Positions 44,186 through 64,000 of a stretch of 64,000 nucleotides of DNA are shown piece by piece. The stretch covers positions 13,959 to 77,958 of the forward strand of contig JBBDRO010000103.1 in NCBI GenBank assembly GCA_040905425.1, read 5' to 3'. The translations under genes and the position numbers were made by a program. The notes under the pieces are model-generated. The model had not been told where the DNA came from. It ran no database searches and saw only the letters and a list, made by a program, of their open reading frames with translations. This DNA is from Gemmatimonadota bacterium (GTDB taxonomy: Bacteria > Gemmatimonadota > Gemmatimonadetes > Longimicrobiales > RSA9). Position 1 is the first letter of the stretch; the number at the start of each line of letters is the position of its first letter.

Positions 44186-46201
44186 ATGGCTGACGCGACT
44201 GACAGATTCGGCAAGTTCGAGATCCGCGAAACGCTGGGTCAGGGCGGCTTCGGCCGCGTGTACCGTGCCTACGACACGGTGCTCCAGCGCGAGGTGGCCA
44301 TCAAGGTCTTCACGGTACACGATCCATCCATCAAGCAGCGGTTCCTGCGCGAAGCTCAGATAGCGGCCAGCCTGAGCCACCCCAACATTGTCGCGATATT
44401 TGATCTCGGCGAGCATGACGGCGACCCGTTCATCGTACAGGAATATCTGGCGGGTGAGGATCTGGAGACGATCATCCGCCGACGTGATGCAATCAGTCTG
44501 CTCACGAAGCTAAACTACCTAATCGGTATCGCCGACGGCATTGCCTTCGCCCACCGGCACGGCGTCATTCACCGTGACATCAAGCCGCAAAACGTGCGGA
44601 TCCTGACGGACGGCTCGGTACGGGTGCTCGATTTCGGGATCGCGAAGCGCGCTGTCGAGGACGCGACCGCACTGACGCAGCCGGGGTCCAGCGTCGGTAC
44701 TGCCGGTTACATGGCCCCCGAGCAGCTGCGCGGGGAACAGATCGATCACCGCGTCGACATCTTTTCCTTCGGCGCACTCGCGTTCCGGCTGCTCACACTC
44801 AGAAGGGCGTTCGAGGGCGATTCGCTGGCGAGCACGCTGTTCAAGATCGTACACGAGGAGGCAGTCTGGCCCTCTGGCGTACGTGAGACCTACCCACCAG
44901 ACCTCACCGAATGCATTGACCGCTGCCTCGCCAAGAAGGCGGAAGATCGGCCCAGCAGCTGCAAAGAAATCGTCGCCGCCTTGCGTGACGTTAAGCGGTC
45001 GGTCGGCTCGGGCGCTGAGGCCGCTGCCATGGTCACCGGCCAGGCTGCGGGCGCGGATCCAGATCAGCAAGCCACCCGGCTCGCGCCGGCCAGAGCTGCC
45101 GCCTATATCCCACCTACTGCACCGTTCAACCCACCGGCGGCAGTCGGCCCGCGGCAGCCCCGGCAGGCGGCATGGTGGAACGCAGCAGTAGGAAAGCGGT
45201 CTGGGGCCGCCGCGGCGGCGTTTATAATCATCGCGACCGCGGCGATGGCTTCACAATCGCTCTCCGGCCGCGCCGCGATCACCAATCCGGACGCGGCTGT
45301 GACCGACGCCACCGACTCGGCCGACGGCGTCGCTGCGCCCGGTCCCAGCGATTCTGCGGACCTCGGCGGTTCGGCGGGCGCACCGGCCGCGGCCACTGAT
45401 GCGTCCGCCGAAGAGCCCGACAACGTACCGAACCAGCCAACCGCGCCTACCCGTGATACCGCCGCGCCGGACCCGGCCGAGCAGCCCACCAACGAGAGAT
45501 CTGCCGCGTTTGCACTCCTCGTTGACGTCGCCAGCCTCGACGGTGGTCTGCAGAAGGGTCTGGCAGCCGCGCTTCGTGGTGACGATCGCATCGATCTGAC
45601 CGCCACGGGCAGTTCTGCCGACCTAGTTATCAGCCATCAGGGCGCTGGCTCGATGCTCCAGGTCAGGGGCAGCGACGGCACTCTGCGCGGAGCTGTCAGC
45701 AGCGCGGACCCGGTGCGCGCGGCCGAGTCGCTCGCCGGCACGATTCGACACGAACTCGGCGTTATGGGGTTGATGCGCCTGCAGAACCCTGCGCAATCGT
45801 TTGCCGTTACCATCGCCCTCGTGGGCGGCCGCCGCACGTTCAGGGTGGGTGATGCCATCGAATTCACGGTCCGCACGCAGCGGCCGGGCTATCTTACCCT
45901 GGTCGATATCGGTCCCACCGGACAGGTCTTCGTGCTGTATCCGAATCCCGATATGCGGTTGGGTGAGCTGCCGGCGGCGAGCGATATCCGTGTTCCGAGC
46001 GGCGCGCATCCGGGCTGGGTGGTCGCACCGCCGGTAGGCCGCGGTGCCGTGCGGGCGATCGTGACATCCAGCCCGCTGTTTACCGAGGGCAGTCAGCCGG
46101 GTAGCGCGGCTGCGGCTGCCCACATACACGAGCAGCTCGCCGCGAGCGCCGGGAGCAGTTGGGCAACGGCACTCGTGACGTACAGCATGACTGACCGCTG
46201 A
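44186..46201 (+). CDS. transmembrane Ser/Thr protein kinase with an extracytoplasmic DUF4384-like domain
   Basis: Intact Hanks motifs GQGGFGRVY, VAIKVF, REAQIAASLSHPNIV, HRDIKPQN, DFGIAK, GTAGYMAPEQ. TM segment AAAAAFIIIATAAMA, then a low-complexity Ala/Asp/Pro linker. C-terminal FRVGDAIEFTVRTQRPGYLTLVDIGPTGQVFVLYPN...GRGAVRAIVTS. Confidence 0.85.
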   Translation: MADATDRFGKFEIRETLGQGGFGRVYRAYDTVLQREVAIKVFTVHDPSIKQRFLREAQIAASLSHPNIVAIFDLGEHDGDPFIVQEYLAGEDLETIIRRRDAISLLTKLNYLIGIADGIAFAHRHGVIHRDIKPQNVRILTDGSVRVLDFGIAKRAVEDATALTQPGSSVGTAGYMAPEQLRGEQIDHRVDIFSFGALAFRLLTLRRAFEGDSLASTLFKIVHEEAVWPSGVRETYPPDLTECIDRCLAKKAEDRPSSCKEIVAALRDVKRSVGSGAEAAAMVTGQAAGADPDQQATRLAPARAAAYIPPTAPFNPPAAVGPRQPRQAAWWNAAVGKRSGAAAAAFIIIATAAMASQSLSGRAAITNPDAAVTDATDSADGVAAPGPSDSADLGGSAGAPAAATDASAEEPDNVPNQPTAPTRDTAAPDPAEQPTNERSAAFALLVDVASLDGGLQKGLAAALRGDDRIDLTATGSSADLVISHQGAGSMLQVRGSDGTLRGAVSSADPVRAAESLAGTIRHELGVMGLMRLQNPAQSFAVTIALVGGRRTFRVGDAIEFTVRTQRPGYLTLVDIGPTGQVFVLYPNPDMRLGELPAASDIRVPSGAHPGWVVAPPVGRGAVRAIVTSSPLFTEGSQPGSAAAAAHIHEQLAASAGSSWATALVTYSMTDR

Positions 46202-50576: not shown

Positions 50577-51470
50577 ATGAAGGAGCCCCAGCACCTCACC
50601 ACCCTTTTTGCCGACGTCAGCGGCAGCACCCGCCTCTTCGAGCAGCGCGGTGACCACGAAGCCCGCCGCATCATCGCCGCCGTCCTCGAGGCGCTGACGG
50701 AAGTGGTGCAGGGCTACAGCGGGCGCGTGGTTAAGACCATCGGGGACGAAGTGATGTGCACCTTCCCCGGCCCCACCCAGGGTCTGCTGGCCGCCTGCGA
50801 CATGCAGCAGCGCGTGGCGCGCGAGCCGGATTTCGCCCGGGACGACATCGGCATCCGGGTAGGTTTGCATCACGGCGCCACGCTCGTCGAGGATGGGGAT
50901 ATCTATGGCGACTCCGTGAACACGGCGGCCCGCATGGCCGCCCTGGCCAAGCGCGAGCAGATCATCACCACCACGGCCACCCTGGAAGGCGTCACGTCCG
51001 GTGTACATCTGAGCGCCCGCGCCCTAGGCCAGGTGCGCGTCCGCGGCAAGCAGCTCCCCGTGGAGGTGGTCGACATCATCTGGCAGGAAGACACATCGGA
51101 GGTCACAACGGTCCAGCAGGTGGTGCGGGTGGGTGGCGAGCCTGCGGATCTCCAGCTGCGTCTCCGCCACAGGGACACGGAGATTATCTTCACGCAGGAC
51201 TCGGAGCCCCTCTCCATAGGCCGGGACGCCGGGAATTCATTGACAGTCCCCACGGAATTGGCCAGCCGGAACCACGCCGTGTTGGAATGCAGGGGAGCCT
51301 ACTTCGCGCTGGTGGACCGCAGCACCAACGCCACCTTTGTGCGCTTCGGGGACGACGAAGAGCTCCGGGTGCATCGGGAGGAGATCCGGCTCCGTGGGTC
51401 GGGAACCATCAGCCTAGGACAGGTCGCGAGAAGCAACCCGGCGGATTTGGTATATTTTGAGTGCGCATAG
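50577..51470 (+). CDS. class III adenylate/guanylate cyclase fused to a C-terminal FHA domain
   Basis: Cyclase motifs: LFADVSGSTRLFE, VKTIGDEVMCTF, GLHHGATLVEDGDIYGDSVNTAARM. FHA: LSIGRDAGNSLTVPTELASRNHAVLE...LVDRSTNATFV. Confidence 0.85.
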   Translation: MKEPQHLTTLFADVSGSTRLFEQRGDHEARRIIAAVLEALTEVVQGYSGRVVKTIGDEVMCTFPGPTQGLLAACDMQQRVAREPDFARDDIGIRVGLHHGATLVEDGDIYGDSVNTAARMAALAKREQIITTTATLEGVTSGVHLSARALGQVRVRGKQLPVEVVDIIWQEDTSEVTTVQQVVRVGGEPADLQLRLRHRDTEIIFTQDSEPLSIGRDAGNSLTVPTELASRNHAVLECRGAYFALVDRSTNATFVRFGDDEELRVHREEIRLRGSGTISLGQVARSNPADLVYFECA

Positions 51471-51891: not shown

Positions 51892-54243
51892 CTAGTCGAT
51901 GACTTCCACCACCACTGGACCCGACGCCCTGGCCATACACGCCAGTCGGCAGGCGCCCGGCTCCAGCCCCTTCCTCTTGAGGGTCTTGAGCTCCTTTTCG
52001 GCGGGCTCGCTCAGGTGCTCGGCGCCCTCCAGAATGCGAATGGCATCGCAGCCGCACATGCCGATCCAGCATTCGTAGTCGATGTCCACCTCATTCTCGT
52101 CGGCCCATTCGAGCAACGTCTGGTCCTCGGCCAGAGGCCCTGCCAGTTCCTGTCCCTGAAAGGTGACGTGTGGACCGCTGGCCACTGGCGCCGCCACGGC
52201 CGCGTGGCTCTGCTGCTGGACCGCGGCGGCCGGCGGTGGCTCGAGCTTGGCTGCCGGCGGAGGGGGCGGTGAGGAAGTGGGGGCTACTGGCGGCTCCAAT
52301 GCGGGCGGCGCCACTGCTGGCATCGAAGTGGTCTTCTCGGGAAGGTCCTCACGTAGCCGCACCTCCAGCTGCTGACCGCCGATGCGGAAGACATCCCGGT
52401 GCCCGAGCTGCCGCTCCCCCTCGATCTTCAGGTAGGTGCCGTTTCGGCTTCCGAAGTCGTGAAGCTGAATTTCTCCGTCCTCGACCGAGAGGGAGAAATG
52501 GAATCGGGAGAGGGTGTGGTCGTCGTTGTCCAGGAGCACGTCGGGGTCTGACTTGCCGCCTGATCGTCCGAAGACGGTGGTGTCCTTCAATAGATACACG
52601 GCCACCTGTCGCCCGCGCGCGTCATAGTGGACGAGCTCGGGCGGCGCTCCGCGCACCTGGCGGGAGACCACGAGGATCTGCTGTCCGGCCCGGATCAGGT
52701 CGCTATGGCGAACGCTCACGGCACGATCGGGGAGCACCTTCTGGTAGGTACCTGCCCGGCTGCCGTCGTCCCGGAGGAAGTAGCCGCTGTCCCTCCGGGT
52801 GAGGGAGGCGTGGGCCTCCGAGAGCAGCGTGTCGTGTGGAAAGGCCAGGTCCGTACCTGTGCGCCCCAATGTGGTCATGCCACGGGGGTTCAGCCGAAAC
52901 TCCTCGGCTTCAACGCCGGCGGGCGTCAGCAGAACCAGGTATGCGCCCTCCGCGGCAGCGGCTCCCGGCTCCGGAGTTACGTCCGCCTCCGCCGCGGCGT
53001 CCTCCTCGTCTCCCCGCAGGCCTAGGACACCGCTTACCCGGCCGTCCGAGGTAGTGTCGCCGGCGAGGGGCTCCGCGTCGCGAATCACCACATTCACCTC
53101 GGCGCGGCCCTCGAGGCGCTGGTTGATGACCTCCGCCACGAACACTCCGTCGCGCAGACCGCTCTTGATGTTGCCCCGGTGCTTGACCTGGCGGAAGGTG
53201 TCGGGCGACCCGGCGAAATCGTCCGTCTCCAGGTAAGACTGGCTCAGCAGGTCTCCGATCACGTAGACGTTCGGCTGCTGCGTCTCCAGCAGTGGCGTCA
53301 CCGCCATGGTCTTCTTTCCCTTGGTGCCACCCGCCACCATGTCGACGCCTATGGTCGAGAGGAGGGCCTCGGGAATGTCCTCGCCGATGCAAGCGATACA
53401 CTGTGTCTTTGCGAACTCCAGGTGAAGCGTTTCCGGCGGCCGACCTGCGGGCGTCTTCCGGTCCACCCGTAGCGACAACACCTCCGTGCGGTCGGGAGTC
53501 GTAACAACGGCTACGGGCTCGCTCTCGGGGAAGTGCCGGATGTTGCCGTTGCCGATGTAAGCTTCGAAGAACTGCTCGGCGAGTGCCTTGGAGACCCGCG
53601 GCATCTTGGTGCCACGGTACGCCCAGTAGACCGGGCACTCGTCACCCGCGCCCACCTTTGCCCTCGAGATGGCCAGGACCGCCTCGGCGGCCGACGTGCC
53701 GCCGCCAACCACCAGCACCGGGCCCTTGGCATAACGATCCGCCTCATCGAGCCGATAGGCAATCCCGTCGGTGTTGCCGGGGATGTCGAACCGCCGGGGG
53801 ACTCCCCGTCCCAGCGCCACCACCACGTGCCGGGCTCGGAAGGTCACCTGTTCGCTCGCCTTGTGGTCCCACGCCACCACGTTCCACAGGTCATCGGCAC
53901 GCTCCATGGCGGTTAGTTCCACGCCGGTCCGAAAGGGTACGCCGAACGCACCGTAAAGCGCCTTCCAGGAACTGCACATCTCATCCTTGTCAATGGGTCC
54001 GAACTGGAGCGCTGCTATCATCTTGCCACCGGCCGGAAACCGCATGCGGTCCCCACCGCCGAAACTGGGGAGGATTAGCTTGTCAGACGGATAGTCCCGG
54101 ATTCGCTTCAGGATGTCATCGAAATCGATGACCAGAACCTCGAGCCGCAATTCCCTGGCGCGGAAAGCCGCGGCGGTGCCTGCGGGTCCGCCGCCGATCA
54201 CCAGGACGTCCAGTATCTCGGTGCCGCCGTTGATGTTGCTCAT
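51892..54243 (-). CDS. FAD/NAD(P)-binding oxidoreductase - FHA - FHA - 2Fe-2S ferredoxin-like fusion protein
   Basis: Dinucleotide motifs VLVIGGGPAGTAAAF, VLVVGGGTSAAEA, NVYVIGDL. FHA1: TTLGRTGTDLAFPHDTLLSEAHASL...SRAGTY. FHA2: TVFGRSGG...LSRFHFSLSVEDGEIQLHDFGSRNGTY. Then a Pro/Ala linker. C-terminal Cys cluster YECWIGMCGCDAIRI...GACRLACMA. Confidence 0.8.
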   Translation of the reverse strand: MSNINGGTEILDVLVIGGGPAGTAAAFRARELRLEVLVIDFDDILKRIRDYPSDKLILPSFGGGDRMRFPAGGKMIAALQFGPIDKDEMCSSWKALYGAFGVPFRTGVELTAMERADDLWNVVAWDHKASEQVTFRARHVVVALGRGVPRRFDIPGNTDGIAYRLDEADRYAKGPVLVVGGGTSAAEAVLAISRAKVGAGDECPVYWAYRGTKMPRVSKALAEQFFEAYIGNGNIRHFPESEPVAVVTTPDRTEVLSLRVDRKTPAGRPPETLHLEFAKTQCIACIGEDIPEALLSTIGVDMVAGGTKGKKTMAVTPLLETQQPNVYVIGDLLSQSYLETDDFAGSPDTFRQVKHRGNIKSGLRDGVFVAEVINQRLEGRAEVNVVIRDAEPLAGDTTSDGRVSGVLGLRGDEEDAAAEADVTPEPGAAAAEGAYLVLLTPAGVEAEEFRLNPRGMTTLGRTGTDLAFPHDTLLSEAHASLTRRDSGYFLRDDGSRAGTYQKVLPDRAVSVRHSDLIRAGQQILVVSRQVRGAPPELVHYDARGRQVAVYLLKDTTVFGRSGGKSDPDVLLDNDDHTLSRFHFSLSVEDGEIQLHDFGSRNGTYLKIEGERQLGHRDVFRIGGQQLEVRLREDLPEKTTSMPAVAPPALEPPVAPTSSPPPPPAAKLEPPPAAAVQQQSHAAVAAPVASGPHVTFQGQELAGPLAEDQTLLEWADENEVDIDYECWIGMCGCDAIRILEGAEHLSEPAEKELKTLKRKGLEPGACRLACMARASGPVVVEVID

Positions 54244-55214
54244 TGCTGGTGCAGTCTGAACTCGAGGTGCGGACCCAGTAGAAAACTGGCGCCCGGCGTA
54301 AGGGCCGCAGTTTCAATGCGGCGGTCGCCTATAAACGTGCCGTTGCGGGCACCCAGGTCCACCAGCTGAACGCCGTGCGCGCCCACGCGTACGATCGCGT
54401 GTTTGCGGGACAGCCACATGTCGGGATCCTCGATGCGGATATCGGCGTCAGAGCCCCGGCCGATGACGTTGTCACCCGGTGCGAGCGGAAACTGGAGAGG
54501 TCCGCCCGTGGGCAACAACACCACCAGTTCGTAGGCGGGCACGGCAGGCGCGACCCGGGTGGCGTCCTCACCACCGGGGGGCGCTGGCTTGGGCGCTCGG
54601 TGATCCACCGGCGGCGCAGGCGTCTTGCCGAGGTCGGGGAGCACGCCAAACCCGGCCATGTCCACGACAGTGTGCTGATTCCCGAGCGGAGCAGCGGGGG
54701 ATGGCTGCGCGGCCGCATCCGGCTCCTCCGGGCGGTTAGCGCCGCCCGCTGAGCCATTGCCCTCCGCCGGATCTTCCACACCCGGCGCAGGCGGCCCGAG
54801 ATCCGGCAGCGCCCCGAAGCCCATCATGTCCACCACCGTGTGCTCCGCGTCGGCTAACGCCTCGGGCGGCGAGGTGTCCGGTGGCGGAGAATCGGGCGGC
54901 CGGCGTACCATGCTGCGACTGAACACGAACTCCTGTCCGGCCACCTCGATGACATGCATCCGCTCCAGCGCCGCGCTGCTGCGGAGCGGCTGCCCGTCCA
55001 CCTGAGCGCTTCCACCTGCGGCCTCCTCCATCACGAAGCCCCCCTCCACGTGCCGGATGCGTGCGTGCACGGCGGCCAGGTCCGCGTCCTGTCCCACCGC
55101 TGGCCTGCCCGCCCCATCCACACCGAGGGCGGTGTTCCCAGCCAGTTCGAAGGTCGATCCAGCCAGCGCTCCTGTACGGCAGACCAGGCGTGCTGTGGGC
55201 GTCAGTGAAGTCAT
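54240..55214 (-). CDS. tandem FHA-domain protein
   Basis: The C-terminal FHA is canonical (NVIGRGSDADIRIEDPDMWLSRKHAIVRV...LGARNGTFI). The N-terminal FHA-like domain is degenerate (AAVHARIRHVEGGFVMEE). A Pro/Ala-rich linker carries a near-duplicated 'HTVVDM.GFG.LPDLG..PAP' segment. The stop overlaps the next start (ATGA). Confidence 0.8.
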   Translation of the reverse strand: MTSLTPTARLVCRTGALAGSTFELAGNTALGVDGAGRPAVGQDADLAAVHARIRHVEGGFVMEEAAGGSAQVDGQPLRSSAALERMHVIEVAGQEFVFSRSMVRRPPDSPPPDTSPPEALADAEHTVVDMMGFGALPDLGPPAPGVEDPAEGNGSAGGANRPEEPDAAAQPSPAAPLGNQHTVVDMAGFGVLPDLGKTPAPPVDHRAPKPAPPGGEDATRVAPAVPAYELVVLLPTGGPLQFPLAPGDNVIGRGSDADIRIEDPDMWLSRKHAIVRVGAHGVQLVDLGARNGTFIGDRRIETAALTPGASFLLGPHLEFRLHQQ

Positions 55215-55227
55215 GGCTACCTGGGGC

Positions 55228-56793
55228 TCAGCGGGACAGGGTGGACCAGTGCGACTTGTCCGGATGGAACTGATGACAGGACGTGCAGCTGGCGGGCGCA
55301 GTCCTGCTGCCGTGACACGAGCGGCAGCTCTCGATGGTGGGGAGATTCACGACCTCCGCCCGGTCCTGAGCAGCCGTTGCGTCCTCCCCCGACAAAAGCA
55401 GCTCGCGCGTGGGAATTACGTCGTGGCAGTCCATGCAGCGGGCGTGCACAACGTGCGCCCGGTGATCGAATTCCGCGCGCGCCAGACCGCCGTGGGCCGG
55501 TTGTTGCACGCGCCTGATGGTGGCGCGCTCCACCACGTGGCACTGGACGCACGGCTCGATGATGGCGCTGATGACGGCCTCGTATGCCGCTACGTCCATC
55601 GTCCCGGTAGCCACCCCGTCGGCCTCGTCGGCGGGGCCCACTCCGAAACGTGTGGCGTCCAGCGGCGCGTAGGGATCCTCCAGGCGGGCCTCCACGGCGG
55701 CCAGCAACTCCGACAGTTCGGCGATCTCGCGCTGCACCGCCGGCGAGGGATCGCCCCGCAGGCCCTCGATCTGCCTCGCCAGGGTGGCGATTGCCTCCCG
55801 GTGCAGCGCGCGGACCTGATCGGGCGGCACCTCCGCCGAGGTGTCCAGGAGGTCAGCCAGCTCAGCGCCCGGGTAGAGGTCGCCGCGCAACTTCCGGAGG
55901 TTGTGGAGGATCCACGGGTCGGCGTGGTAGACCGGCCGCTTCACCACGGAACCACCCAGATCGGTGAACTCACCGGCGTTCCAGAAGTATGCCCACTGGC
56001 TCCCGGGCTCACCGGCGCTGCGGATGTCACCCAACGTGGCAACGCCAGGGCCGCTGCCGGAGGCCACCCGGGCGGGCTCCGTGGCGTCGCTCCGAGAGAG
56101 ATGGCAGGCATCACAGTGCCGGTCGAAGGCCAGGGGCTGAAAGCCCTTCCCGTCCGCCTCAGGCGTGTGGCAGCTCAGGCACGCCGCCTCGGGCTCCACC
56201 AGTTCGCTTTCCGCCATCACCTCTCGCACGTGCTGCACGTGGGCGAATTTCAGATTGGCCACGCCCGCGTTGTCCTCCACGGCAAAATCGAATTCCGGGT
56301 GGTCCTTTTCAAAGGAATTCACCTCGTGGCAGGATACGCACCGGGCATCGGCCACTTCCTGCAGGGAGGCCTCTCTGCCCTGGTGCTCACGGTGACAGGT
56401 GCCGCAAGCCACCTCGTGGACATCGGCAGCCGAACGGTCCGCCTCCCCGGAGCGGTACATATAGTGGCGCGCGAACGTGTAGATCCCGAGCTCGCCGCCG
56501 GACTGCTGATGACAGCTCAGGCATTTGGCGTCGGCCGTGCCTTGAAGCGGCGTGTGGCAAGCGGCGCAGTCCCCGTCGAAGATAGCGTGACTGTCCGTGA
56601 GCGGCGCGCCGGCAATGGCCGTCCCCCGGCCCAGGAAAGCGCTGGCGAGCAGGAGCACGGCCAGGACGAGGCCAGCCAGCCCTCCGCATGCAAAGAGACG
56701 GCTGCGGCTCGTGAGCCGCGTGTACCGGTCCGCCACCGGGAGTCGGTGTGGCGAGAAGAATCCCTTCTCGAAGCGACGATCTTCCGAGCCCAC
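55228..56793 (-). CDS. membrane-anchored decaheme c-type cytochrome
   Basis: Ten CxxCH motifs read in the translation: CAACH, CLSCH, CGTCH, CVSCH, CLSCH, CDACH, then CVQCH, CMDCH, CRSCH, CTSCH. N-terminal TM/signal anchor LAGLVLAVLLLASAFL. GTG start 15 nt after the upstream stop. Confidence 0.85.
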   Translation of the reverse strand: MGSEDRRFEKGFFSPHRLPVADRYTRLTSRSRLFACGGLAGLVLAVLLLASAFLGRGTAIAGAPLTDSHAIFDGDCAACHTPLQGTADAKCLSCHQQSGGELGIYTFARHYMYRSGEADRSAADVHEVACGTCHREHQGREASLQEVADARCVSCHEVNSFEKDHPEFDFAVEDNAGVANLKFAHVQHVREVMAESELVEPEAACLSCHTPEADGKGFQPLAFDRHCDACHLSRSDATEPARVASGSGPGVATLGDIRSAGEPGSQWAYFWNAGEFTDLGGSVVKRPVYHADPWILHNLRKLRGDLYPGAELADLLDTSAEVPPDQVRALHREAIATLARQIEGLRGDPSPAVQREIAELSELLAAVEARLEDPYAPLDATRFGVGPADEADGVATGTMDVAAYEAVISAIIEPCVQCHVVERATIRRVQQPAHGGLARAEFDHRAHVVHARCMDCHDVIPTRELLLSGEDATAAQDRAEVVNLPTIESCRSCHGSRTAPASCTSCHQFHPDKSHWSTLSR

Positions 56794-56808: not shown

Positions 56809-57651
56809 CTAGAAGTAGAGAATGAAGAACACGTGCAGCACCACCAACGCCAGCAGCGCCACAGCCGCGGGCAGGTGGAGCACGAGCCAGCCGCGCAGCA
56901 CGCGCTGCAGCGTATAGTGGACGTCCATCTCGTGCTTGGTGACGCGCAGCCCCTGCACCTCGTCCACCACCGCCGCGTCTTCCGCCTCCAGGGTGCACTT
57001 GAGCAGCTCGACTTCCCGTGTGCCGCGCAGGTGGGCGGCGGGGCTCCGGAACAGTTCACGATAGGTGACCCGCGGCCCCGCCATCACCGGCGCCACGCGC
57101 TTCTGGAACCAGCTTCGCACGCGTGGGTCTGATTCCGCCACCTTGGCCTCCGCGCGGGCGCGCAACTCGTCGACCAGACCGGGGATCCGCTCCAGGTGGA
57201 CCTCGAACGAGGAGGTGGTGTTCAGCACCTGCGGAACTGCCCGCTGCAGAAAGAGGCCCACCGCACCCGTCAGGACCACCCAGAGGCTCAGCAGCCAGAG
57301 CCCCGCCACCATTCCGCCCGAGGGCAGCCCGAAACCGGTGTGGTAGAGGAAGAGCAGGAAAAACAGGGTGCCCCCCCACAGGTGTACCTGCAAGTACGTC
57401 CGCGTGGGGCCGAGGCGCCGCACGGCGGGCATGGCGCGGCGGGCCGAGTAGAGCATTACTGCCAGGAGCGACAGCGCCGCCGCCACGCCGAGCCCGAGCC
57501 CGAGCGGGGAACTGGGTGCCACACCACCGGTGGCCATGCCTACCATGAATGCCACTGTAGCAGCAACGGCACCCAGGGTACTGAGCAGGGGAACAGGCCC
57601 GGAACGCACCACGCCTCCGGCACCGCGCAGGCGCTGAACCAGAGCCGTCAT
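56809..57651 (-). CDS. integral membrane protein with two His-N13-His pairs (candidate di-heme b transmembrane electron carrier)
   Basis: ATG 57651 overlaps the upstream stop (ATGA). About 5 TM helices. H90/H104 lie in YLQVHLWGGTLFFLLFLYHTG, and H260/H274 in WLVLHLPAAVALLALVVLHVFF. A soluble segment of about 115 aa sits between TM4 and TM5. The function is inference only. Confidence 0.6.
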   Translation of the reverse strand: MTALVQRLRGAGGVVRSGPVPLLSTLGAVAATVAFMVGMATGGVAPSSPLGLGLGVAAALSLLAVMLYSARRAMPAVRRLGPTRTYLQVHLWGGTLFFLLFLYHTGFGLPSGGMVAGLWLLSLWVVLTGAVGLFLQRAVPQVLNTTSSFEVHLERIPGLVDELRARAEAKVAESDPRVRSWFQKRVAPVMAGPRVTYRELFRSPAAHLRGTREVELLKCTLEAEDAAVVDEVQGLRVTKHEMDVHYTLQRVLRGWLVLHLPAAVALLALVVLHVFFILYF

Positions 57652-59246
57652 ACCGGCATCTCCGCTGCACGCTTCGCCTGCCGCAGTAGGTCGAACTCTT
57701 CGGTGCCGGAAACGCGGTGCGCGGCGCTGTGCGGGCAGCTGGCCACGCAGGCCGGTCCCTCCGGCGCCTGGTAGCAAAGATCGCACTTGCTGGCCACCGC
57801 CCGGGGCTGCCCACGCAAATAGCTGGGCACCGCATCGGGGCCCCACGAGGTGTCCAGGTCGTGCATGACGATGGAATCATACGGGCAGTTCTGCTCGCAG
57901 GCGCCGCAACCGATGCAGATGGCGGGATCGATTTCCACCACCGCACCCACGTTCAGCCGGCGGATGGCGCCCGTGGGGCACCCCACCAGGCACGTGGGAT
58001 CCTGACAGTGATAGCAGGAGCGGGCCACCATGAAGCCGTCGTAGACCTCACCTTCGCGCACGAACCGAGGGCGGCCGCCATGGGTGCTGGCGCACCCGCG
58101 CACGCAATCGTCGCAGCGGGTGCAGGCCTCGAGGTCAATGACCAGCACACTGTTCGCCTGCGCAATGCCCTTGGCGAGCGTGAAGTCGAGCAGATCCGAA
58201 CGGGCCAGGTCAGAGCGGGTGGCACCCATGATCTTGATCCGCTCCATGGCAGTGCCCCACAGGCGTTGCTCCAGTTCCGGCTGCGCGGCCAGGGCGTCCA
58301 GGAAGGCGTCCCGGCCGATGCGGACCAGCTCCGAGTTGCCTACTGAGGAGGCGCTCACCTGCCACACGCCGGAGCCGTCCACCATGAGTTCGGACTCCCC
58401 GAGCGAATCACCCTTGCTGAGGTACGATACGGCTACCTCGGCGGCGCCCAGCGCCTGTGAGAGCCGCAGGCAACCGGAGCGTACCAGGACGAAGTGCTCC
58501 GTGGGCTCGCCCTCCCGGACGGCCACCTCCCCCGGCTCGCACGACACCAGTTCGGCCGCGGCCACCAGCCGCTCAAGCGTTTCCGGCGTGCAGCCGTGCA
58601 GCAGCGGGGTGCCGGCCAGGTGCTGTCGCAGCATGCGGGCCTTGTAGAGCTCGTCCAGCCGTATCCGGAGCGCGCGTGATTTACGGCGCAGCTTGCGGAG
58701 CGCGGGCAGGCGGATCTGCAGTAGCGTACAGGCGCTCGCCGTGCGGGCGGTGGCGGATTGCGGCCAACCGTTCATGGCGCCGATCTCGCCAAACAGTTCG
58801 CCAGGTCCCAAGCGCATGCACTCGTCCGCAGCCACGTCGAAGTCCATGGACGCCAGCATCACCGTTCCGCCGCTATGGCTCTCCCGATCGGCTTCGTAGG
58901 GGGCTTCACCCGCCACCGCGCCTGCGCCGCTTCCGAAGATGGGCTGAACCGCGCTCTCCGGGCGCGCCAGGAAGACCTCCACTTCGCCGCTCACCACCAG
59001 GAATGCCAGGTCCAGGTAGCTGCCCTGCTCGAAGATCACCGCCCCCGCGTTCCACTCCGCCAGCGATAGGTCGGGGCTCAACTCCTTCAGGAGGTCGTCA
59101 TCGAATTCCTGCAAGATGCCGATCTTTTTGAGCTGCGCGGGGGTGGGCAGGCTGGAGATGCTACGGATCCCTGTGTGCTCGCCGAAGGAGGACCAGCGGT
59201 CGCCGTGCTGGCGACTCATCATGACCAGGGTCCCTGATGCTTCCAT
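57648..59246 (-). CDS. two cyclic-nucleotide-binding domains fused to a 4x[4Fe-4S] DmsB/NrfC-like ferredoxin
   Basis: cNMP-binding 1: GAVIFEQGSYLDLAFLVVSGEVEV...GELFGEIGAMNGWPQSATARTA. cNMP-binding 2: GEVAVREGEPTEHFVLVRSGCLRL...GDSLGESELM. Four Cys clusters: CTRCDDCVRGC, CYHCQDPTCLVGCP, CIGCGACEQNCP, CDLCYQAPEGPACVASCP. No twin-arginine or signal sequence. Confidence 0.85.
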   Translation of the reverse strand: MEASGTLVMMSRQHGDRWSSFGEHTGIRSISSLPTPAQLKKIGILQEFDDDLLKELSPDLSLAEWNAGAVIFEQGSYLDLAFLVVSGEVEVFLARPESAVQPIFGSGAGAVAGEAPYEADRESHSGGTVMLASMDFDVAADECMRLGPGELFGEIGAMNGWPQSATARTASACTLLQIRLPALRKLRRKSRALRIRLDELYKARMLRQHLAGTPLLHGCTPETLERLVAAAELVSCEPGEVAVREGEPTEHFVLVRSGCLRLSQALGAAEVAVSYLSKGDSLGESELMVDGSGVWQVSASSVGNSELVRIGRDAFLDALAAQPELEQRLWGTAMERIKIMGATRSDLARSDLLDFTLAKGIAQANSVLVIDLEACTRCDDCVRGCASTHGGRPRFVREGEVYDGFMVARSCYHCQDPTCLVGCPTGAIRRLNVGAVVEIDPAICIGCGACEQNCPYDSIVMHDLDTSWGPDAVPSYLRGQPRAVASKCDLCYQAPEGPACVASCPHSAAHRVSGTEEFDLLRQAKRAAEMPV

Positions 59247-59258
59247 GGGCGTTCCGAC

Positions 59259-61334
59259 TCAATTGCCGCGGCCGATAGCCGCGTAGATGCGCTCCAGGCG
59301 CTGCTTCACCAGGAGCAGGACTTCCTCGGGTGTCATGGAGCCCGGCGCAACGTCAATCGGCTCCAGATCCAGGCTGCCGGATACGGTGCGTGCCGGTGCC
59401 ATCCCCGGCATAGGGGGCGGCGCCGCAAAACCGGCGCTCCCTCCGGTCGACCCGCCCGGGCTGCTGCCCACCGCGGTGAGAGGACGGCTCGGCGGCAGCG
59501 GCTCCACCACCTCCACCTGAGGTATGGGCCGGTCGGCCACGGCGCTCGTGAACGCCGCATTCAGCGCTCCCTCGGCCACCTCCGGATACGCGGCCCCGCG
59601 TTTCCCCCGCTCCAACTGCGGCTTCTTGCCTGGCCAGTGGGCTATGCTCCGATTGGCGGTGCCGATGTCATAGCCGCTACCCGAGGGGTGTCCGGCCGCG
59701 AGCAGCCGCTCATCACTGACGTGGTGACAGCCCGCGCACGTCCGTGCGCGCTCGTCAGCCTTCTTGAGGGCACGCATTCCCGCCTGTGGATTGCCCCCCT
59801 CCTGGTGCGGCTCCAGGAAGGCGGCGCCCGCGCCGTGGCAGCTCTCGCAGCTGACACCCGGCTCCACCACTCGCATGGACCGCTCATCCACGGTACCGTG
59901 GCAGCTCATGCAGATCTGATCCCCCCGCCCCATGGCGGCCGGGCCGATGCCGTACAACGTGGCGATCTTCCGTGCTCGAGGATCGTCGCCGAGGAGGCGG
60001 CGGCCAGTCTGCTGATGGGGGTCCCCGTACCACCACTCCTCCGCTTCGCCATGGCAGGAGGCGCACTCGCCGACGCCCACGGTGCCGTTCTGCGCTGGGC
60101 TGTGCCACGCCGGCTGGCGCCGGATCTCTCCCGGCATGTCGGGCGGCGGAGTGACCGCTGGGGGGCTGGCGCCCGGGGCTGCTGGCGCGGTCCCCCCGTC
60201 ACCCCCTGGCCCGGCGCTGGGTTCCACGGTGGTGCCGCTGCCCACCGAGCCGGTGGCCGCGGCCACCGGCGCAACAACGGGCGCTCCCGCGATCACCGTA
60301 TCCAGCACCGCCAGGACCGCCGCGTCCGCGGAGCGCGCGAACTGCTGCCCTATTCCACGAATCCTCTCCGCCGCGGTCTCCAGCTCCGCCCGGTTGCTGG
60401 CCACCAGGCGCAGGTCCTTCCCGGTTCTCAGCACCTCCTCCACAGCCGGCACGGAAGCGACGGTCGCCACCTCCTCCAGCGCCCGATACGCACCCTGCGC
60501 CGCGCGTTCCATGGATCGCGCGTAGCGCCCCTCCGCGGTGGCGCCTGCCAGGCCACGGAGCGCGTATTCGTACGCCAGGATCCGACCGGTGACGAACATC
60601 ATGCGATTTCGCTCGGGGGTGAGTTCCCGGTTCACACCCTCGGTGCCGTGCAGGAAGTTGTGCCGGACCTGCTCCACCCTGGCCACCAGGTCGAAGTCCG
60701 TGGTGCCCGTCCGGTGTTCACCGCGGTTGACAAGCTCTTCTTGCGGCACGGTGTGGCATTCAAAACAGTTGGCCACCACGGCGTAGATGTCCGCCGACGG
60801 CGGCAGCATGCCCTCCGCCGCGGCGGCGGCGATGCGCTGTTCCCTGGCCGCGGCCGATTCGTCGCCGCTGGACGGCAGCTTATTGTGGACATTCAGCCAT
60901 CCCTGGGCCGGGCCATGGCACGACTCGCACGAAACGCCGGCGACCGCCTTCCGGTCCGGCCCGACCGTGTAGTGGCACCGCATGCAGACCGCTTCCTGGC
61001 GCTTCGTGACCCGCAGGTTCATGCGCTGCAGAATGGCCTTTGCGTTCTCGTCCTTGTGCAGCGTCTCGTACCCCTGCGCGTGCTTCGTCTCCTGCCAGAC
61101 CTCCCATTCGTCAGTATGGCAGACGCCGCACGGCTCGTAGCCCTTGGCGTTCTCCACCACTACGCGGTCGGGATCGATGCGGAGGAAGGGCGAGTCGGAA
61201 AAGTCGGCCGGCTCCTGGGCCAGCAGGGCGTACGCCCCGGCCAGTCCAAGCGTGCCGAGCCCCGCCAGCCCGGCGGCGAGCCGGCGGCGGGGCTGGCGCA
61301 ATTGCCGGTAGCGGAACGACTTCAACGGTGGCAT
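59259..61334 (-). CDS. octaheme c-type cytochrome (two tetraheme modules)
   Basis: Signal/anchor LAGLGTLGLAGAYALLAQ. CxxCH x8: CGVCH, CMRCH, CESCH, CFECH, then CASCH, CMSCH, CESCH, CAGCH. The two halves are visibly paralogous. Confidence 0.85.
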   Translation of the reverse strand: MPPLKSFRYRQLRQPRRRLAAGLAGLGTLGLAGAYALLAQEPADFSDSPFLRIDPDRVVVENAKGYEPCGVCHTDEWEVWQETKHAQGYETLHKDENAKAILQRMNLRVTKRQEAVCMRCHYTVGPDRKAVAGVSCESCHGPAQGWLNVHNKLPSSGDESAAAREQRIAAAAAEGMLPPSADIYAVVANCFECHTVPQEELVNRGEHRTGTTDFDLVARVEQVRHNFLHGTEGVNRELTPERNRMMFVTGRILAYEYALRGLAGATAEGRYARSMERAAQGAYRALEEVATVASVPAVEEVLRTGKDLRLVASNRAELETAAERIRGIGQQFARSADAAVLAVLDTVIAGAPVVAPVAAATGSVGSGTTVEPSAGPGGDGGTAPAAPGASPPAVTPPPDMPGEIRRQPAWHSPAQNGTVGVGECASCHGEAEEWWYGDPHQQTGRRLLGDDPRARKIATLYGIGPAAMGRGDQICMSCHGTVDERSMRVVEPGVSCESCHGAGAAFLEPHQEGGNPQAGMRALKKADERARTCAGCHHVSDERLLAAGHPSGSGYDIGTANRSIAHWPGKKPQLERGKRGAAYPEVAEGALNAAFTSAVADRPIPQVEVVEPLPPSRPLTAVGSSPGGSTGGSAGFAAPPPMPGMAPARTVSGSLDLEPIDVAPGSMTPEEVLLLVKQRLERIYAAIGRGN

Positions 61335-61367: not shown

Positions 61368-62876
61368 CTAGAACTTGTGCCGGAGTTCGAGCCGGACGCC
61401 GCTGATGGTCCCCAGATCTTTGCGATGGCCGTACATGCCGTCGGCCCGCAGGATAATGGCGTTGGTCAGCGTACGCTGCGCCCGCACGCCGAACGCTACC
61501 TGTTCGCCTGGCAGTCCGGGGCTTTCCACGAGCGGATAGCTGCCCGCCACTTCCACCACGAGTTGCCGGTCGAAGCTGGAGCCGAGCAGGTTCAGGCCGA
61601 GCGCTCCACCTACCGCGTCCTGCGCGGTCGCGGTCAGCGCGGGGAGCGCCGTGACCGCATCCGGTTCGAAGCTGAGTCCGGTGTTGCGGAGGACGCCGCC
61701 TGCTCCCGGATCCCGGGCCGCGGAGACAGGCCGGTCGAACCCGGCGAAGAGGTTCAGGTACGGTACCACCGTGGAGGGTCGCGAGGTGATGAGGGAGTTC
61801 TCCAGCAGCAACAGGTGCCCGCCGGGGGCAAGCGCACTGCCTGCGCTGACGGCGCCGACGTAGCGCAAGGAATTGGAGATGAACGTGCCGTAGCGCTTCG
61901 AAAAGGAGACGGCATAGGAGTGGTAGGACTGATCGGCCTCGGAGTCGTCACCCACGTAGGCGTACCCCGCCTCCACATAGCCACCGTAAGCCTCGATAAA
62001 CGCGTTCACGCCCGCCAGCTGACCCGTCTCCCCGATTGCCGGAGAGGCGCCATGGGACACCTTGTCGAAGCCGACGAAGAAGCTGATGTCGTAGTTCGAC
62101 CAGTCGAGCGCCGCCGAGTTGCGGGCTGGAATCGTGAACGCGGCGCCGGTGAAGGCGTCTTCGAGCCAGGTCCCGTTGTGGAAGACCAGAGGCATGAGCC
62201 CCGCTGCCACCGGCAGGTCGAAGGGTGCCGCCCGGCCAGCGAGTCCGCCGACGATGGCGCCCAGGTCTCCCTCGAAGAAGAGCGCCACCGGGATGGCCGA
62301 GAAGTTCTGGTCGAATGTGCTCGTGTCCGCGGCGAAATCGAAGCGGGTCAGGACACCGTCGTTCTCCAGCGGCCGGAATGTGGCATGGATACGCTCGGTT
62401 GCCGTGAGCTTCAGATCCACGTCCAGGTTCAGACGCGCCGCCACCGTCCCGCCCTCGTCGTCATCCACGCTATTGAAGCCGCTGGCCGCCCGCAGGTCAC
62501 CGTATAACAGGAGCTGCGGGATCAGCAGGTTCGTGCCGCCCAGCGGGGTCCCGCCCCGCCGCAGCGGCCCTGCGCCGTACATGTCGCTGCCGAGTTCCAG
62601 CAGCGGCCGCTGGGTGGGATTCAGGTGCTTGGCTCCGTAGATGTCGAGCTGCGCCTGATAGTCGTACATGGTGTCGCTGTAGACCGGATCGGGCCCGAAG
62701 GCTTCAGCCGTATGCGGCACCACACGCACCCGCGGGTCCGTCTGCTGGGCGGTGGCATCGCCGGCCAGCAGGACGCTGGCCACCGCCATTGCGCCCAGCG
62801 GAATCGACCGGCCGTTGCGCGTCGACGTGCGGGTCGCGGCCCCAGCCCGTGCCTGGGAGGAGAGTTGGCTTGTCAT
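61368..62876 (-). CDS. outer-membrane porin-like beta-barrel protein
   Basis: ATG 62876 overlaps the upstream stop (TGATG). Signal peptide GAMAVASVLLAGDATAQ. Long alternating-polarity beta-strand pattern rich in Gly and aromatics. C-terminal ...GVRLELRHKF (terminal Phe, an OMP signature). Confidence 0.7.
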   Translation of the reverse strand: MTSQLSSQARAGAATRTSTRNGRSIPLGAMAVASVLLAGDATAQQTDPRVRVVPHTAEAFGPDPVYSDTMYDYQAQLDIYGAKHLNPTQRPLLELGSDMYGAGPLRRGGTPLGGTNLLIPQLLLYGDLRAASGFNSVDDDEGGTVAARLNLDVDLKLTATERIHATFRPLENDGVLTRFDFAADTSTFDQNFSAIPVALFFEGDLGAIVGGLAGRAAPFDLPVAAGLMPLVFHNGTWLEDAFTGAAFTIPARNSAALDWSNYDISFFVGFDKVSHGASPAIGETGQLAGVNAFIEAYGGYVEAGYAYVGDDSEADQSYHSYAVSFSKRYGTFISNSLRYVGAVSAGSALAPGGHLLLLENSLITSRPSTVVPYLNLFAGFDRPVSAARDPGAGGVLRNTGLSFEPDAVTALPALTATAQDAVGGALGLNLLGSSFDRQLVVEVAGSYPLVESPGLPGEQVAFGVRAQRTLTNAIILRADGMYGHRKDLGTISGVRLELRHKF

Positions 62877-64000
62877 CAGCGGACCTCGAACTCGACGGTG
62901 TACGGATGGATGTCCAGCATCCACTCGTTCATGGCTCGCTCCATCTCCTCCGTGGCGCCCACGAACTTCATGAAGTAGATGGGCTCGGCGCGGCTGCGAA
63001 GGCGCACCGCCAGCCGGTAGGTACCGGGCCTGGTGAGCAGGTCGCCCGGAACGGTGTACGTTGCGTCACGACTGGAAAGCGGCGGCAGCGAGCGGCTCTC
63101 CATGCGCACGCCCGGCGGATGGTTCAGCACCGAAACCGGTTGGCCCGCCGGGCGGATGAACGGGAGCTGATCCACGTCCAGGTTGATGGGCAGATACATC
63201 TCGCGGTCGGTACCCTTGACGTTCTGGGTGAGGAACTTCGTCTGCAGATTGAAGAGCTGGTCGTCGTGCGGGATACGGCCCGCCAGCACGTCCAGGGAAT
63301 GCAGGTCCGCCATGTCGCCGTTGCTGTCCAGGTAACCCGACTCCCAGATCCGCTGTCCGTCAGGGTCGATTAGCGCCACATTCAGCCACAGTTCCGGCTG
63401 CGCGCCCAGGGAGCCGGAGGGAAGGTTGTGCCCCGAGTTGGTGTTGGTAAGCGTGTAATGGAACTTCAGCGCCCCCCCGCGCCGGGGGTCACCGCTGAAG
63501 AACGGTCCGTCCAGCTTCGAACCGTTCTCCATCACCTGCCGGCGCAGTTCCCGCTTTTCCTCCAGCTTGGCCAGGTTCTGCTGGACGATGTCGCGGGCCT
63601 CGTAGCGGTCGTCCGGCTCGGCCCACATCTCGGGGAAGTTCACCTGCACCTGCCCGCCGGCCAGTCGGTCCTCGAACGCGTCCGTACCCCATCCCGCACG
63701 GAAATCGAAGCGCAGCCACTCGTCGATGGTCCAGCGCTCCGCGGCCGGATTGTGGGGAAAGACACCCGGATGCGCGCTGGCGTAACCGGGCCCGTAGAAG
63801 GTGTGGTTCGTGTGCTTCCGGGTCGGGTTGATGGGGACCCCCGCAAGCACCGCCGACGGCGCAGTCGCGTAGCCGTCCGGCTGCCCCGGCGTCTGGCCCA
63901 TGTGGCAGTCCTGGCAAGAGATCCCCGCGTCGGCGGCAGGGGAGGCCCGGTACTGGTCCCAGACCACCTCCAGCTTGATGCCGGGGTGCACTGCTACCTG
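62876..64000 (-). CDS. multiheme-cytochrome family protein, 5' end outside the window (C-terminal 374 aa seen)
   Basis: The frame stays open to the window edge; the listed GTG 63991 is not a real start. One CxxCH is visible (ISCQDCHMG). A large heme-free C-terminal domain follows (TNTNSGHNLPSGSLGAQPELWLNVALIDPDGQRIWESGY...). Confidence 0.7.
   Translation of the reverse strand, partial: QVAVHPGIKLEVVWDQYRASPAADAGISCQDCHMGQTPGQPDGYATAPSAVLAGVPINPTRKHTNHTFYGPGYASAHPGVFPHNPAAERWTIDEWLRFDFRAGWGTDAFEDRLAGGQVQVNFPEMWAEPDDRYEARDIVQQNLAKLEEKRELRRQVMENGSKLDGPFFSGDPRRGGALKFHYTLTNTNSGHNLPSGSLGAQPELWLNVALIDPDGQRIWESGYLDSNGDMADLHSLDVLAGRIPHDDQLFNLQTKFLTQNVKGTDREMYLPINLDVDQLPFIRPAGQPVSVLNHPPGVRMESRSLPPLSSRDATYTVPGDLLTRPGTYRLAVRLRSRAEPIYFMKFVGATEEMERAMNEWMLDIHPYTVEFEVR

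Follow-up and report, generated by a model that had tools for sequence, protein, structure and literature searches.

Electron export from bacteria by the known routes (CymA, ImcH, CbcL and similar) starts at the quinone pool. We analyzed the gene ptdF and its surroundings in a 64,000-nucleotide stretch of contig JBBDRO010000103.1 from a Gemmatimonadota bacterium (the window). If the reading given below is true, electrons from cytoplasmic NAD(P)H reach multiheme cytochromes by way of Fe-S clusters and a pair of b hemes, which would be a different design, nearer to that of the eukaryotic NADPH oxidases.

The closest described system is the operon named ptdABCDEFG in a 2024 preprint, a putative porin-cytochrome complex (bioRxiv 10.1101/2023.11.21.568154; the preprint). 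It was the only description of the cluster found in a full-text literature search. The parts listed there are a pentaheme protein (PtdA) that has a beta-sandwich, a porin called PtdB, a flavin adenine dinucleotide (FAD)/NAD(P) oxidoreductase (PtdC), a tetraheme protein (PtdD), a cyclic nucleotide monophosphate (cNMP)-binding protein with 4Fe-4S clusters (PtdE), PtdF, labeled "ferric reductase-like," and a decaheme protein (PtdG). The authors know of no earlier description of the cluster and state that its function "remains completely unknown." They report ptd genes from nitrite oxidizers and aerobes, and also from Alphaproteobacteria, Nitrospinota/Nitrospirales and Verrucomicrobia of saline habitats. 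A Gemmatimonadales metagenome-assembled genome (MAG) is listed in their Table S7, and ptdAB were highly transcribed in an oxygen-deficient zone.

The gene under study is the following:

56809..57651, minus strand: ptdF, encoding a 280-amino-acid membrane protein with five transmembrane (TM) helices, a predicted di-heme b cytochrome

The product is 100% identical to the NCBI hypothetical protein WEB88_13775 from a Gemmatimonadota MAG. The gene lies between those of a cNMP-binding 4Fe-4S protein and a decaheme cytochrome, together with genes for a porin, multiheme cytochromes and an FAD/NAD(P) oxidoreductase, and thus occupies the same slot (PtdE-PtdF-PtdG) as the PtdF of the preprint. The order in the window, A-B-D-E-F-G-x-C, equals the accession order in Table S7 for Sulfidibacter corallicola and the Acidobacteriota LB AC 1. 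Related loci and homologous proteins are given below by L and P numbers. In a gammaproteobacterial MAG (L010), the cluster has the canonical order 5-heme / porin-like / FHA-FAD_binding_6-NAD_binding_1-Fer2 / 4-heme / cNMP-Fe-S / P0220 / 10-heme. P0220, which fills its F slot, is homologous to the target (BLASTP E=2e-17, 27% identity over 220 amino acids) and aligns with all four paired histidines in register; therefore, the target was filed as PtdF.

PtdF is not a first sighting, as the cluster and the "ferric reductase-like" label were already in the preprint. The label there is one line long, and heme ligands are not discussed. Added here are four putative ligands and their flanking glycines across the family, the topology, an architecture of four or five TM helices with a cytoplasmic insertion, natural PtdE::PtdF fusions, a conserved core of C, E, F, and G in which the flavin module is exchanged, and the size of a family that occurs in several phyla (approximately 3,700 clusters at 50% identity) and is not covered by any curated family. 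An earlier note, made from the DNA alone, had proposed that the protein is the transmembrane step of an electron conduit. Conservation of the histidines, topology, heme b family matches, synteny, and fusions support this proposal. Two b hemes are almost certainly bound by the four histidines, and PtdF is probably an inner-membrane di-heme b cytochrome that forms the transmembrane step of an export chain from NAD(P)H to the cell exterior.

Histidine pairs and topology of PtdF

Five TM helices were delineated from hydropathy and an AlphaFold model. The protein is divided as follows:

57529..57597, minus strand: TM1, residues 19-41, in-to-out
57448..57507, minus strand: TM2, residues 49-68, with the invariant G55, followed by the conserved R71-R/K72
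57337..57396, minus strand: TM3, residues 86-105, with H90/H104
57241..57315, minus strand: TM4, residues 113-137, out-to-in, with the invariant G129 and the near-invariant G132
56890..57240, minus strand: insertion between TM4 and TM5, residues 138-254, a helical domain in the cytoplasm
56812..56889, minus strand: TM5, residues 255-280, with H259/H273; the C terminus follows directly and is periplasmic

Histidines occur at residues 90, 104, 152, 207, 240, 245, 259, and 273. The first pair, H90/H104, lies in TM3 (VHLWGGTLFFLLFLYH) and the second, H259/H273, in TM5 (LHLPAAVALLALVVLH), both with a spacing of i/i+14. All four codons are CAC on the minus strand (57382-84, 57340-42, 56875-77, and 56833-35). 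The earlier note had placed one pair in a single hydrophobic helix and the other in the last helix, with identical i/i+14 spacing, in agreement with these positions; only its numbering of the second pair, H260/H274, was one too high. At least two H-x13-H motifs were obtained in 1.3% of residue shuffles of PtdF. In the single sequence, the pattern is thus suggestive and only modestly unlikely by chance, and it goes beyond chance because it is conserved across homologues.

A word-indexed search returned 26 close homologues with 40-61% identity (alignment A1), in which H90, H104, H259, and H273 are invariant. An exhaustive profile search against 1.84 billion cluster representatives (50% identity clusters) yielded 3,695 representatives of the family at E<=1e-3, of which 1,533 reached E<=1e-10. 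The majority are 265-285 amino acids long. At least two H-x13-H motifs were present in 167 of the 175 sequences collected; the eight exceptions lack the C-terminal part of the profile or are proteins of <200 amino acids. Among 155 near-full-length representatives with a median identity of 29% to the target, H90 and H104 were each found in 155, H259 in 152, and H273 in 151. Apart from the histidines, only G55 and G129 were invariant in this set; G132 was kept in 151 and R71 in 145 of the sequences. A MAFFT alignment of 113 diverse members (A2) contained exactly six invariant columns, namely G55, H90, H104, G129, H259, and H273. Conservation of the four histidines, named in the earlier note as a check, was thus seen in close and in diverse homologues alike, and they are the family's most conserved positions. 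A chance origin of the second pair as a feature of the hydrophobic tail was ruled out by the invariance. The four residues are a direct experimental handle, and several cultured bacteria carry the ptd cluster, among them, according to the preprint, Roseibium aggregatum, Tistlia consotensis, and Sulfidibacter corallicola.

The unpaired histidines 152, 207, and 240 are not conserved among the 155 representatives, and position 245 is occupied by histidine in 81 and by glutamine in 56 of them. H245 (56917-56919, minus strand) lies exactly 14 residues ahead of H259 in the cytoplasmic extension of the same long helix, in the context K239-x3-D243-x-H245-x3-Q249. It could be part of a docking or electron-entry site.

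The distribution of lysine and arginine was decisive for the topology. Three such residues are found in the N-terminal tail, five in the loop 69-85, and none in both periplasmic loops. Because of this distribution, the N terminus, the 69-85 loop, and the inserted domain were assigned to the cytoplasm, and therefore TM3 and TM5 both run in-to-out. H90 and H259 are each located 4 residues in from the cytoplasmic interface, and H104 and H273 lie one helix-length farther out. Conserved stripes run along TM3 (H90-G94-F97-H104; i, i+4, i+7, i+14) and TM5 (H259-L266-H273; i, i+7, i+14), which places the putative ligands of each pair on one helix face. By prediction, both pairs thus sit at matching depths in two parallel TM helices; TM topology was one of the checks named in the earlier note. 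At these predicted depths, each helix would supply one ligand to either of two stacked hemes. The inner heme would be bound by H90 (TM3) and H259 (TM5) and the outer heme by H104 (TM3) and H273 (TM5). G55 in TM2 and G129 and G132 in TM4 would make room for the porphyrins, and R71, R/K72, and R/K253 at the cytoplasmic interface could bind propionates.

The AlphaFold model of PtdF has a mean predicted local distance difference test (pLDDT) score of 85.8, with blocks of 10 residues in the TM helices mostly >90. TM3 and TM5 are both helical in this model (blocks of 77-95 and 90-95, respectively), a kind of check that the earlier note had suggested. Helices in and after the insertion comprise residues 153-172, 176-186, 197-201, 204-219, and 223-279, so that the last helix of the inserted domain is continuous with TM5. 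Most blocks of the insertion reach pLDDT values of 85-97, and two loop blocks dip to 58 and 64. The domain (residues 138-254) contains 18 lysine and arginine and 17 aspartate and glutamate residues. Conserved in it are E150, R155, P157, the Y182-equivalent, K239, D243, H/Q245, Q249, and R/K253. We propose that it serves as a docking platform for PtdE. In one homologue of 883 amino acids (P0171), the cytoplasmic domain carries a low-complexity Pro/Ala/Lys-rich insertion of approximately 600 residues with repeated "TPLEILREK" and CxxC-containing units, and both histidine pairs are kept.

TM1 is dispensable, as the homologues P0006, P0007, P0016, and P0019 are without it. Because of such homologues, the core of PtdF was defined as a four-helix Gly / His-His / Gly / His-His bundle. 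TM1 is kept in fusions of an Fe-S domain to PtdF, where it is needed to hold the Fe-S domain in the cytoplasm. In the TM1-less calls (P0019 at L001 10001-10711; P0006, P0007, and P0016), the first helix corresponds to TM2, and in L001 the start of P0019 is only 8 nucleotides past the PtdE stop. Such sequences imply a four-TM form with the N terminus outside; the calls may also be gene-call artifacts. For the target, the plus strand reads tcat at 57648-57651, which gives the ATGA overlap of the ptdE stop with the ptdF start (ATG at 57651-57649). The translational coupling to a cytoplasmic poly-ferredoxin gene noted earlier is therefore present. A GTG-started open reading frame (ORF) at 56809-57846 was ruled out as the true gene, as the N termini of homologues and the NCBI call fit the ATG at 57651.

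Relation to described cytochrome families

The target gave no Pfam match at E<=0.01 and no NCBIfam match at E<=0.1. The 113 diverse members were scanned singly against Pfam at E<=1. Sub-threshold matches to DUF4405 were obtained for 55 members (best E 5.3e-5), to Ni_hydr_CYTB for 31, and to Ferric_reduct for 16 (best E 3.4e-6), and the other 74 matched families were hit by at most 8 members each. DUF4405, Ni_hydr_CYTB, and Ferric_reduct share one Pfam clan, that of the transmembrane di-heme cytochromes. In ten members scanned individually, the heme b family matches lay mostly over TM2-TM3(-TM4), those to DUF4405 always over TM2-TM3. No member reached the DUF4405 cut-off of 26.7 bits, and the target had no match to this family. 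Ni_hydr_CYTB likewise did not match the target; one member, P0292, which carries a precomputed PF01292 label, scored 28.2 bits against a cut-off of 30.1. For PepSY_TM (FoxB-type, PF03929), only a weak match of P0292 was found (E=0.72, 10 bits against 28.8). One PtdF homologue is annotated by the Joint Genome Institute as "thiosulfate reductase cytochrome b subunit." By sequence, PtdF is probably a remote relative of three families, ferric reductase domain (FRD), DUF4405, and b561, and by their criteria a member of none.

The ferric reductase superfamily (NOX, FRE, bacterial FRD, MsrQ/YedZ, STEAP; PF01794) has its histidine pairs in the third and fifth TM helix, both running in-to-out, as has PtdF. 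Four canonical histidines, spaced 13-14 residues within each pair, are described for the ferric reductase domain, in NOX2 H101/H115 in TM3 and H209/H222 in TM5, with one heme per level (PMC3591440). In both groups, the N terminus is cytoplasmic and the TM4-TM5 loop faces the electron donor, and in canonical ptd clusters the source of electrons would likewise be NAD(P)H via an FNR-like flavoprotein. However, the ferric reductase domain has six TM helices, whereas PtdF has five (four in some homologues), lacks TM6, and carries a helical insertion of approximately 115 residues in the TM4-TM5 loop. The flavoprotein of the ptd system is separate, with a 2Fe-2S and then up to four 4Fe-4S clusters interposed. 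The acceptor would be a multiheme cytochrome instead of O2 or a metal chelate.

For DUF4405 (PF14358), as for PtdF, electron transport through the cytoplasmic membrane is the proposed role. Experiments showed heme b binding by one DUF4405 protein, and models of the family have six TM helices and four central histidines like those of MsrQ and FoxB/PepSY (PMC11334425). Its genes are linked to ApbE flavinylation or ferrosome genes, unlike ptdF with its Fe-S and multiheme partners (PMC11334425).

Proteins of the b561/Ni_hydr_CYTB type (FdnI, HyaC, PhsC, CybB; PF01292) have a four-helix di-heme b core, as predicted for PtdF, and partner four-cluster ferredoxins of the DmsB/HybA type, like PtdE. In contrast to the reading of PtdF given here, these enzymes usually have their Fe-S subunit in the periplasm, and their cytochrome reacts with quinone. 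The heme ligands of the FdnI type come from three helices (1+1+2), compared with 2+2 in PtdF. The pattern of residues is the same in cytochrome b of bc1/b6f, where helix A carries Gly, helix B His-x13-His, helix C Gly, and helix D His-x13-His; TM2 (G55), TM3 (H90/H104), TM4 (G129/G132), and TM5 (H259/H273) of PtdF correspond to it. PtdF is without the elements of the Qo/Qi sites, is much smaller, and has other partners, and no cytochrome b Pfam family was among the 25 most frequent weak matches listed for the 113 members. In the Tmc, Hmc, and DsrMKJOP complexes of sulfate reducers, electrons cross the membrane through a cytochrome b that stands between an Fe-S protein in the cytoplasm and a multiheme cytochrome c in the periplasm, which is the same outline as the predicted wiring of PtdF. 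No sequence relation to these complexes was detected. Their cytochromes b are NarI/HdrE-like with other histidine spacings, the cytoplasmic partner is HdrD-like, and electron flow is generally inward, in sulfate reduction.

Probable partners of PtdF and the proposed electron path

The ptd genes of the window are arranged as follows:

62876..64000, minus strand: C-terminal part of a ptdA-like multiheme cytochrome, whose gene runs past the window end
61368..62924, minus strand: ptdB-like outer-membrane porin of 518 amino acids with the C terminus ...RHKF, in the slot of the preprint's PtdB
59259..61334, minus strand: ptdD-like octaheme cytochrome, periplasmic, with two c554-like tetraheme modules (Pfam Cytochrome_C554 1.2e-21, two stretches)
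57648..59246, minus strand: ptdE, a cNMP-binding and four-motif 4Fe-4S protein of the DmsB/HybA type (Pfam cNMP_binding 1.7e-29 and Fer4 families)
55228..56793, minus strand: ptdG, a decaheme c-type cytochrome with 10 CxxCH, directly downstream of ptdF
54240..55214, minus strand: FHA-domain protein, downstream of ptdG (Pfam FHA 5.6e-14)
51892..54243, minus strand: ptdC-equivalent (Pfam Pyr_redox_2 4.6e-20, FHA 2.4e-18 in two stretches, and a C-terminal Fer2 2.5e-06)

PtdE contains four Cys motifs, at residues 375, 411, 444, and 488, besides its three cNMP-binding stretches, and has NCBIfam matches to DmsB, HybA, DsrO, and HydN. No TM segment and no signal sequence were found in it. PtdG has a single N-terminal TM anchor (residues 30-62), the remainder being periplasmic; the decaheme cytochrome gene that the earlier note had seen after ptdF is thus confirmed, with the periplasmic part anchored to the membrane. 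The ptdC-equivalent is an FAD/NAD(P)H oxidoreductase of the pyridine-nucleotide-disulfide type and is proposed to be the electron-input module. Compared with the canonical cluster, the window has an octaheme instead of a tetraheme PtdD, a PtdC of the Pyr_redox_2 type with two FHA stretches instead of the FNR type, and an extra FHA protein inserted.

The triad PtdE-PtdF-PtdG (PtdF-PtdG on short contigs) was found in each of the examined loci, among them loci of Gemmatimonadota, Acidobacteriota, Gammaproteobacteria, Planctomycetes, and SAR324, and a decaheme gene directly follows the PtdF homologue in L001, L003, L004-L007, and L010. The order 5-heme / porin-like / 8-heme / Fe-S / PtdF / 10-heme / FHA / flavoprotein is repeated on further Gemmatimonadota-like contigs; the window gene order was seen in L001, L003, and L005-L007, and parts of it on shorter contigs, including one of Acidobacteriota. 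Planctomycetes and SAR324 loci keep the core flavoprotein-Fer2 / cNMP-Fe-S / PtdF homologue / large multiheme. A flavoprotein with a 2Fe-2S (Fer2) domain is encoded in every long locus, often with the FHA domain kept. Its flavin module differs by lineage, being Pyr_redox_2 in Gemmatimonadota-like clusters and FNR-type FAD_binding_6/NAD_binding_1 elsewhere (L010 4884-6650, L012 3440-4720, and L013 1351-2634; FHA is fused only in L010 among these). The L012 flavoprotein also gives a faint NOX-type NAD_binding_6 match. Judged by these domain matches, the flavoprotein is replaced by a non-orthologous one, both types having a C-terminal 2Fe-2S domain. That the flavin module was swapped while Fer2 was retained argues for NAD(P)H input as the selected function.

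Natural fusions of cNMP-Fer4 to PtdF were found in the metagenomic proteins P0030 (828 amino acids) and P0067 (771 amino acids), and shorter Fer4::PtdF proteins are P0064, P0071, and P0083. In all of these fusions, the Fe-S domain is N-terminal to TM1, and the junction is a normal TM1. Therefore, PtdE and PtdF are functionally tied, with the Fe-S domain on the cytoplasmic N-terminal side. An apparent fusion of PtdF to a cytochrome c (P0108) was set aside, as it looks like a frameshifted gene call.

We infer the partners, the direction of flow, and the regulation by cNMP and phospho-threonine from sequence and gene context. NAD(P)H would be oxidized by the PtdC-type flavoprotein, whose 2Fe-2S domain would pass the electrons on to PtdE and its 4Fe-4S clusters. 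From PtdE they would enter the inner b heme of PtdF, move to the outer b heme and be taken up by the membrane-anchored decaheme PtdG, which would hand them to the periplasmic PtdD and on to the outer-membrane PtdB/PtdA porin-cytochrome and the cell exterior. In its logic, the chain would be a NOX/FRE ferric reductase taken apart into separate subunits, the flavin being wired to the hemes by Fe-S clusters. The quinone pool need not be used in such a chain, and judging by the operon content the bypass that the earlier note had considered is plausible. Outward flow is favored by the redox potential and by the membrane potential; for this reason, the chain would act as a regulated electron-export valve and not as a coupling site.

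Several observations weigh against a di-heme cytochrome with these partners. No curated family matches at threshold, the best for the target being Ferric_reduct at E=0.5 and 10.9 bits against a cut-off of 28. Profiles of A1, A2, and A3 (TM2-TM4 only) against PDB sequences gave only chance coiled-coil and insignificant p22phox matches, and Foldseek against the PDB gave no match. Alignment of A2 with E. coli MsrQ by hhalign was not significant (P=0.099, 50 columns), and neither was that with E. coli YodB (P=0.35), both with single-sequence templates and, for MsrQ, low sensitivity; the former pairs LG..W.Q.H...H of TM2-TM3 of PtdF with MsrQ residues 119-168. The cytoplasmic domain of approximately 115 residues stands between the membrane and a docked partner, which bears on the tunneling distance from the Fe-S clusters to the inner heme. 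The direction of flow follows from thermodynamic reasoning only. Some relatives use quinones, among them Ni_hydr_CYTB proteins and, reportedly, MsrQ (PMC12525009).

The last point leads to the best-surviving alternative, in which PtdF is a quinone-reactive cytochrome b similar to FdnI, HydC, or PhsC and the conduit runs through the quinone pool. Either (mena)quinol would reduce PtdG, as with CymA or CbcL, or PtdE and PtdC would reduce the quinone pool via PtdF. The weak matches of 31 of the 113 members to the quinone-linked Ni_hydr_CYTB family, with P0292 falling short at 28.2 against 30.1 bits, point in this direction. So do the homologue annotated as a thiosulfate reductase cytochrome b subunit and the ubiquinone that the FRD-family protein MsrQ was recently reported to hold (PMC12525009). 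However, with quinol as the donor there would be no need for the dedicated cytoplasmic chain (a flavoprotein with 2Fe-2S and the four-motif Fe-S protein), which is conserved, coupled to PtdF in translation, and in some proteins fused to it. The 2+2 arrangement of the histidines also differs from the 1+1+2 ligands of the FdnI type. No known quinone-site motif was identified in PtdF, although none is specifically testable. Passage through the quinone pool is therefore considered unlikely.

Reversed flow is rated lower still and appears improbable. Here, the wiring would be the same, but electrons from a donor outside the cell or in the periplasm (such as Fe(II), a cathode, or another cell as partner) would move through PtdF to PtdE and PtdC and finally to cytoplasmic acceptors such as NAD(P)+. 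Porin-cytochrome complexes run both ways in nature (MtoAB, PioAB), and nothing in the sequence fixes the direction. The occurrence of ptd genes in nitrite oxidizers and aerobes (bioRxiv 10.1101/2023.11.21.568154) would suit such a role. Inward movement, however, opposes the membrane potential, and NAD(P)+ lies uphill from most environmental donors. No energy-coupling subunit such as a proton or sodium pump is encoded in the cluster, and the NOX/FRE proteins, the closest to PtdF by ligand pattern, export electrons (PMC3591440).

That the four histidines bind no heme, PtdF being an anchor or sensor for PtdE or a binder of another metal while electrons cross elsewhere, would fit the lack of a curated heme-protein family at threshold and of a PDB match by sequence or Foldseek, but is very improbable in view of four invariant intramembrane histidines at i/i+14 on parallel helices with invariant glycines on neighboring helices (the classic bis-heme signature), of recurrent weak matches only on heme b families, and of a conserved cluster with no other membrane protein able to carry electrons across the inner membrane.

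Signaling genes and variation among ptd loci

Genes with signaling domains adjoin the ptd genes of the window between 41884 and 51470:

50577..51470, plus strand: adenylate/guanylate cyclase-FHA protein, divergent (Pfam Guanylate_cyc 4.1e-17, FHA 1.3e-08)
46244-49171: caspase-domain/PD40 protein
44186-46201: Ser/Thr protein kinase with DUF4384
41884-42873: PP2C phosphatase

A kinase gene also flanks the ptd clusters in L001 and L012, and the slot of the FHA protein downstream of ptdG is also filled in L001, L003, and L008 (Gemmatimonadota-type cluster). The cyclase-FHA protein is a possible source of the nucleotide that PtdE would sense. PtdE carries cNMP domains and other proteins of the ptd cluster carry FHA domains; together with the nearby signaling genes, these suggest control of ptd by phospho-threonine and cyclic nucleotide. 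A valve that dissipates reducing power and membrane potential would fit this heavy regulatory load (cNMP, FHA, cyclase, kinase, and PP2C). Extending the export chain, we tentatively suggest that the core PtdC-PtdE-PtdF-PtdG is a second-messenger-gated, quinone-independent NAD(P)H:extracellular-acceptor oxidoreductase, a "split NOX." The inserted helical domain of PtdF would then be the docking and gating element, and the electron-export valve would open or close in response to cyclic nucleotide and, via FHA, to phospho-threonine. If this holds, the chain could, for example, serve marine and soil bacteria in reducing iron or manganese, in redox balancing, or in making extracellular superoxide.

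A profile search of genome contigs with the close alignment returned four loci only, none in an organism of Table S7, and tblastn against plasmids gave no match for the target or P0220. A look-up of cluster members and a second homology search returned almost only the name "hypothetical protein."

The outer parts of the cluster vary. The ptdA-like sequence has one CxxCH in the part inside the window, and its full-length homologues in L001, L005, and L006 have five. The ptdB-like protein gave no Pfam or NCBIfam match; its C-terminal Phe is also present in L001, L003, and L010. Its ORF (GTG at 62924) overlaps the ptdA-like gene (stop at 62876) by 49 nucleotides, and the N-terminal 45 residues show no clean signal peptide until approximately residue 40. 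The gene probably starts at an internal Met rather than at GTG 62924. In the ptdD-like protein, eight CxxCH motifs lie at residues 69-190 and 424-533, and an Ala/Pro/Val-rich linker (336-365) scores as hydrophobic. PtdD is an octaheme protein in the window, a single tetraheme protein in L010, and two separate c554-like genes in the Planctomycetes locus L012, which looks like a duplication with joined copies in one lineage and separate copies in another. In L009 (5406-12888 of a 935-kb contig), insertion sequence elements (rve-type transposase pairs) lie between ptdE and ptdF and again past ptdG, and the multiheme genes are short; this cluster is possibly a decaying copy.

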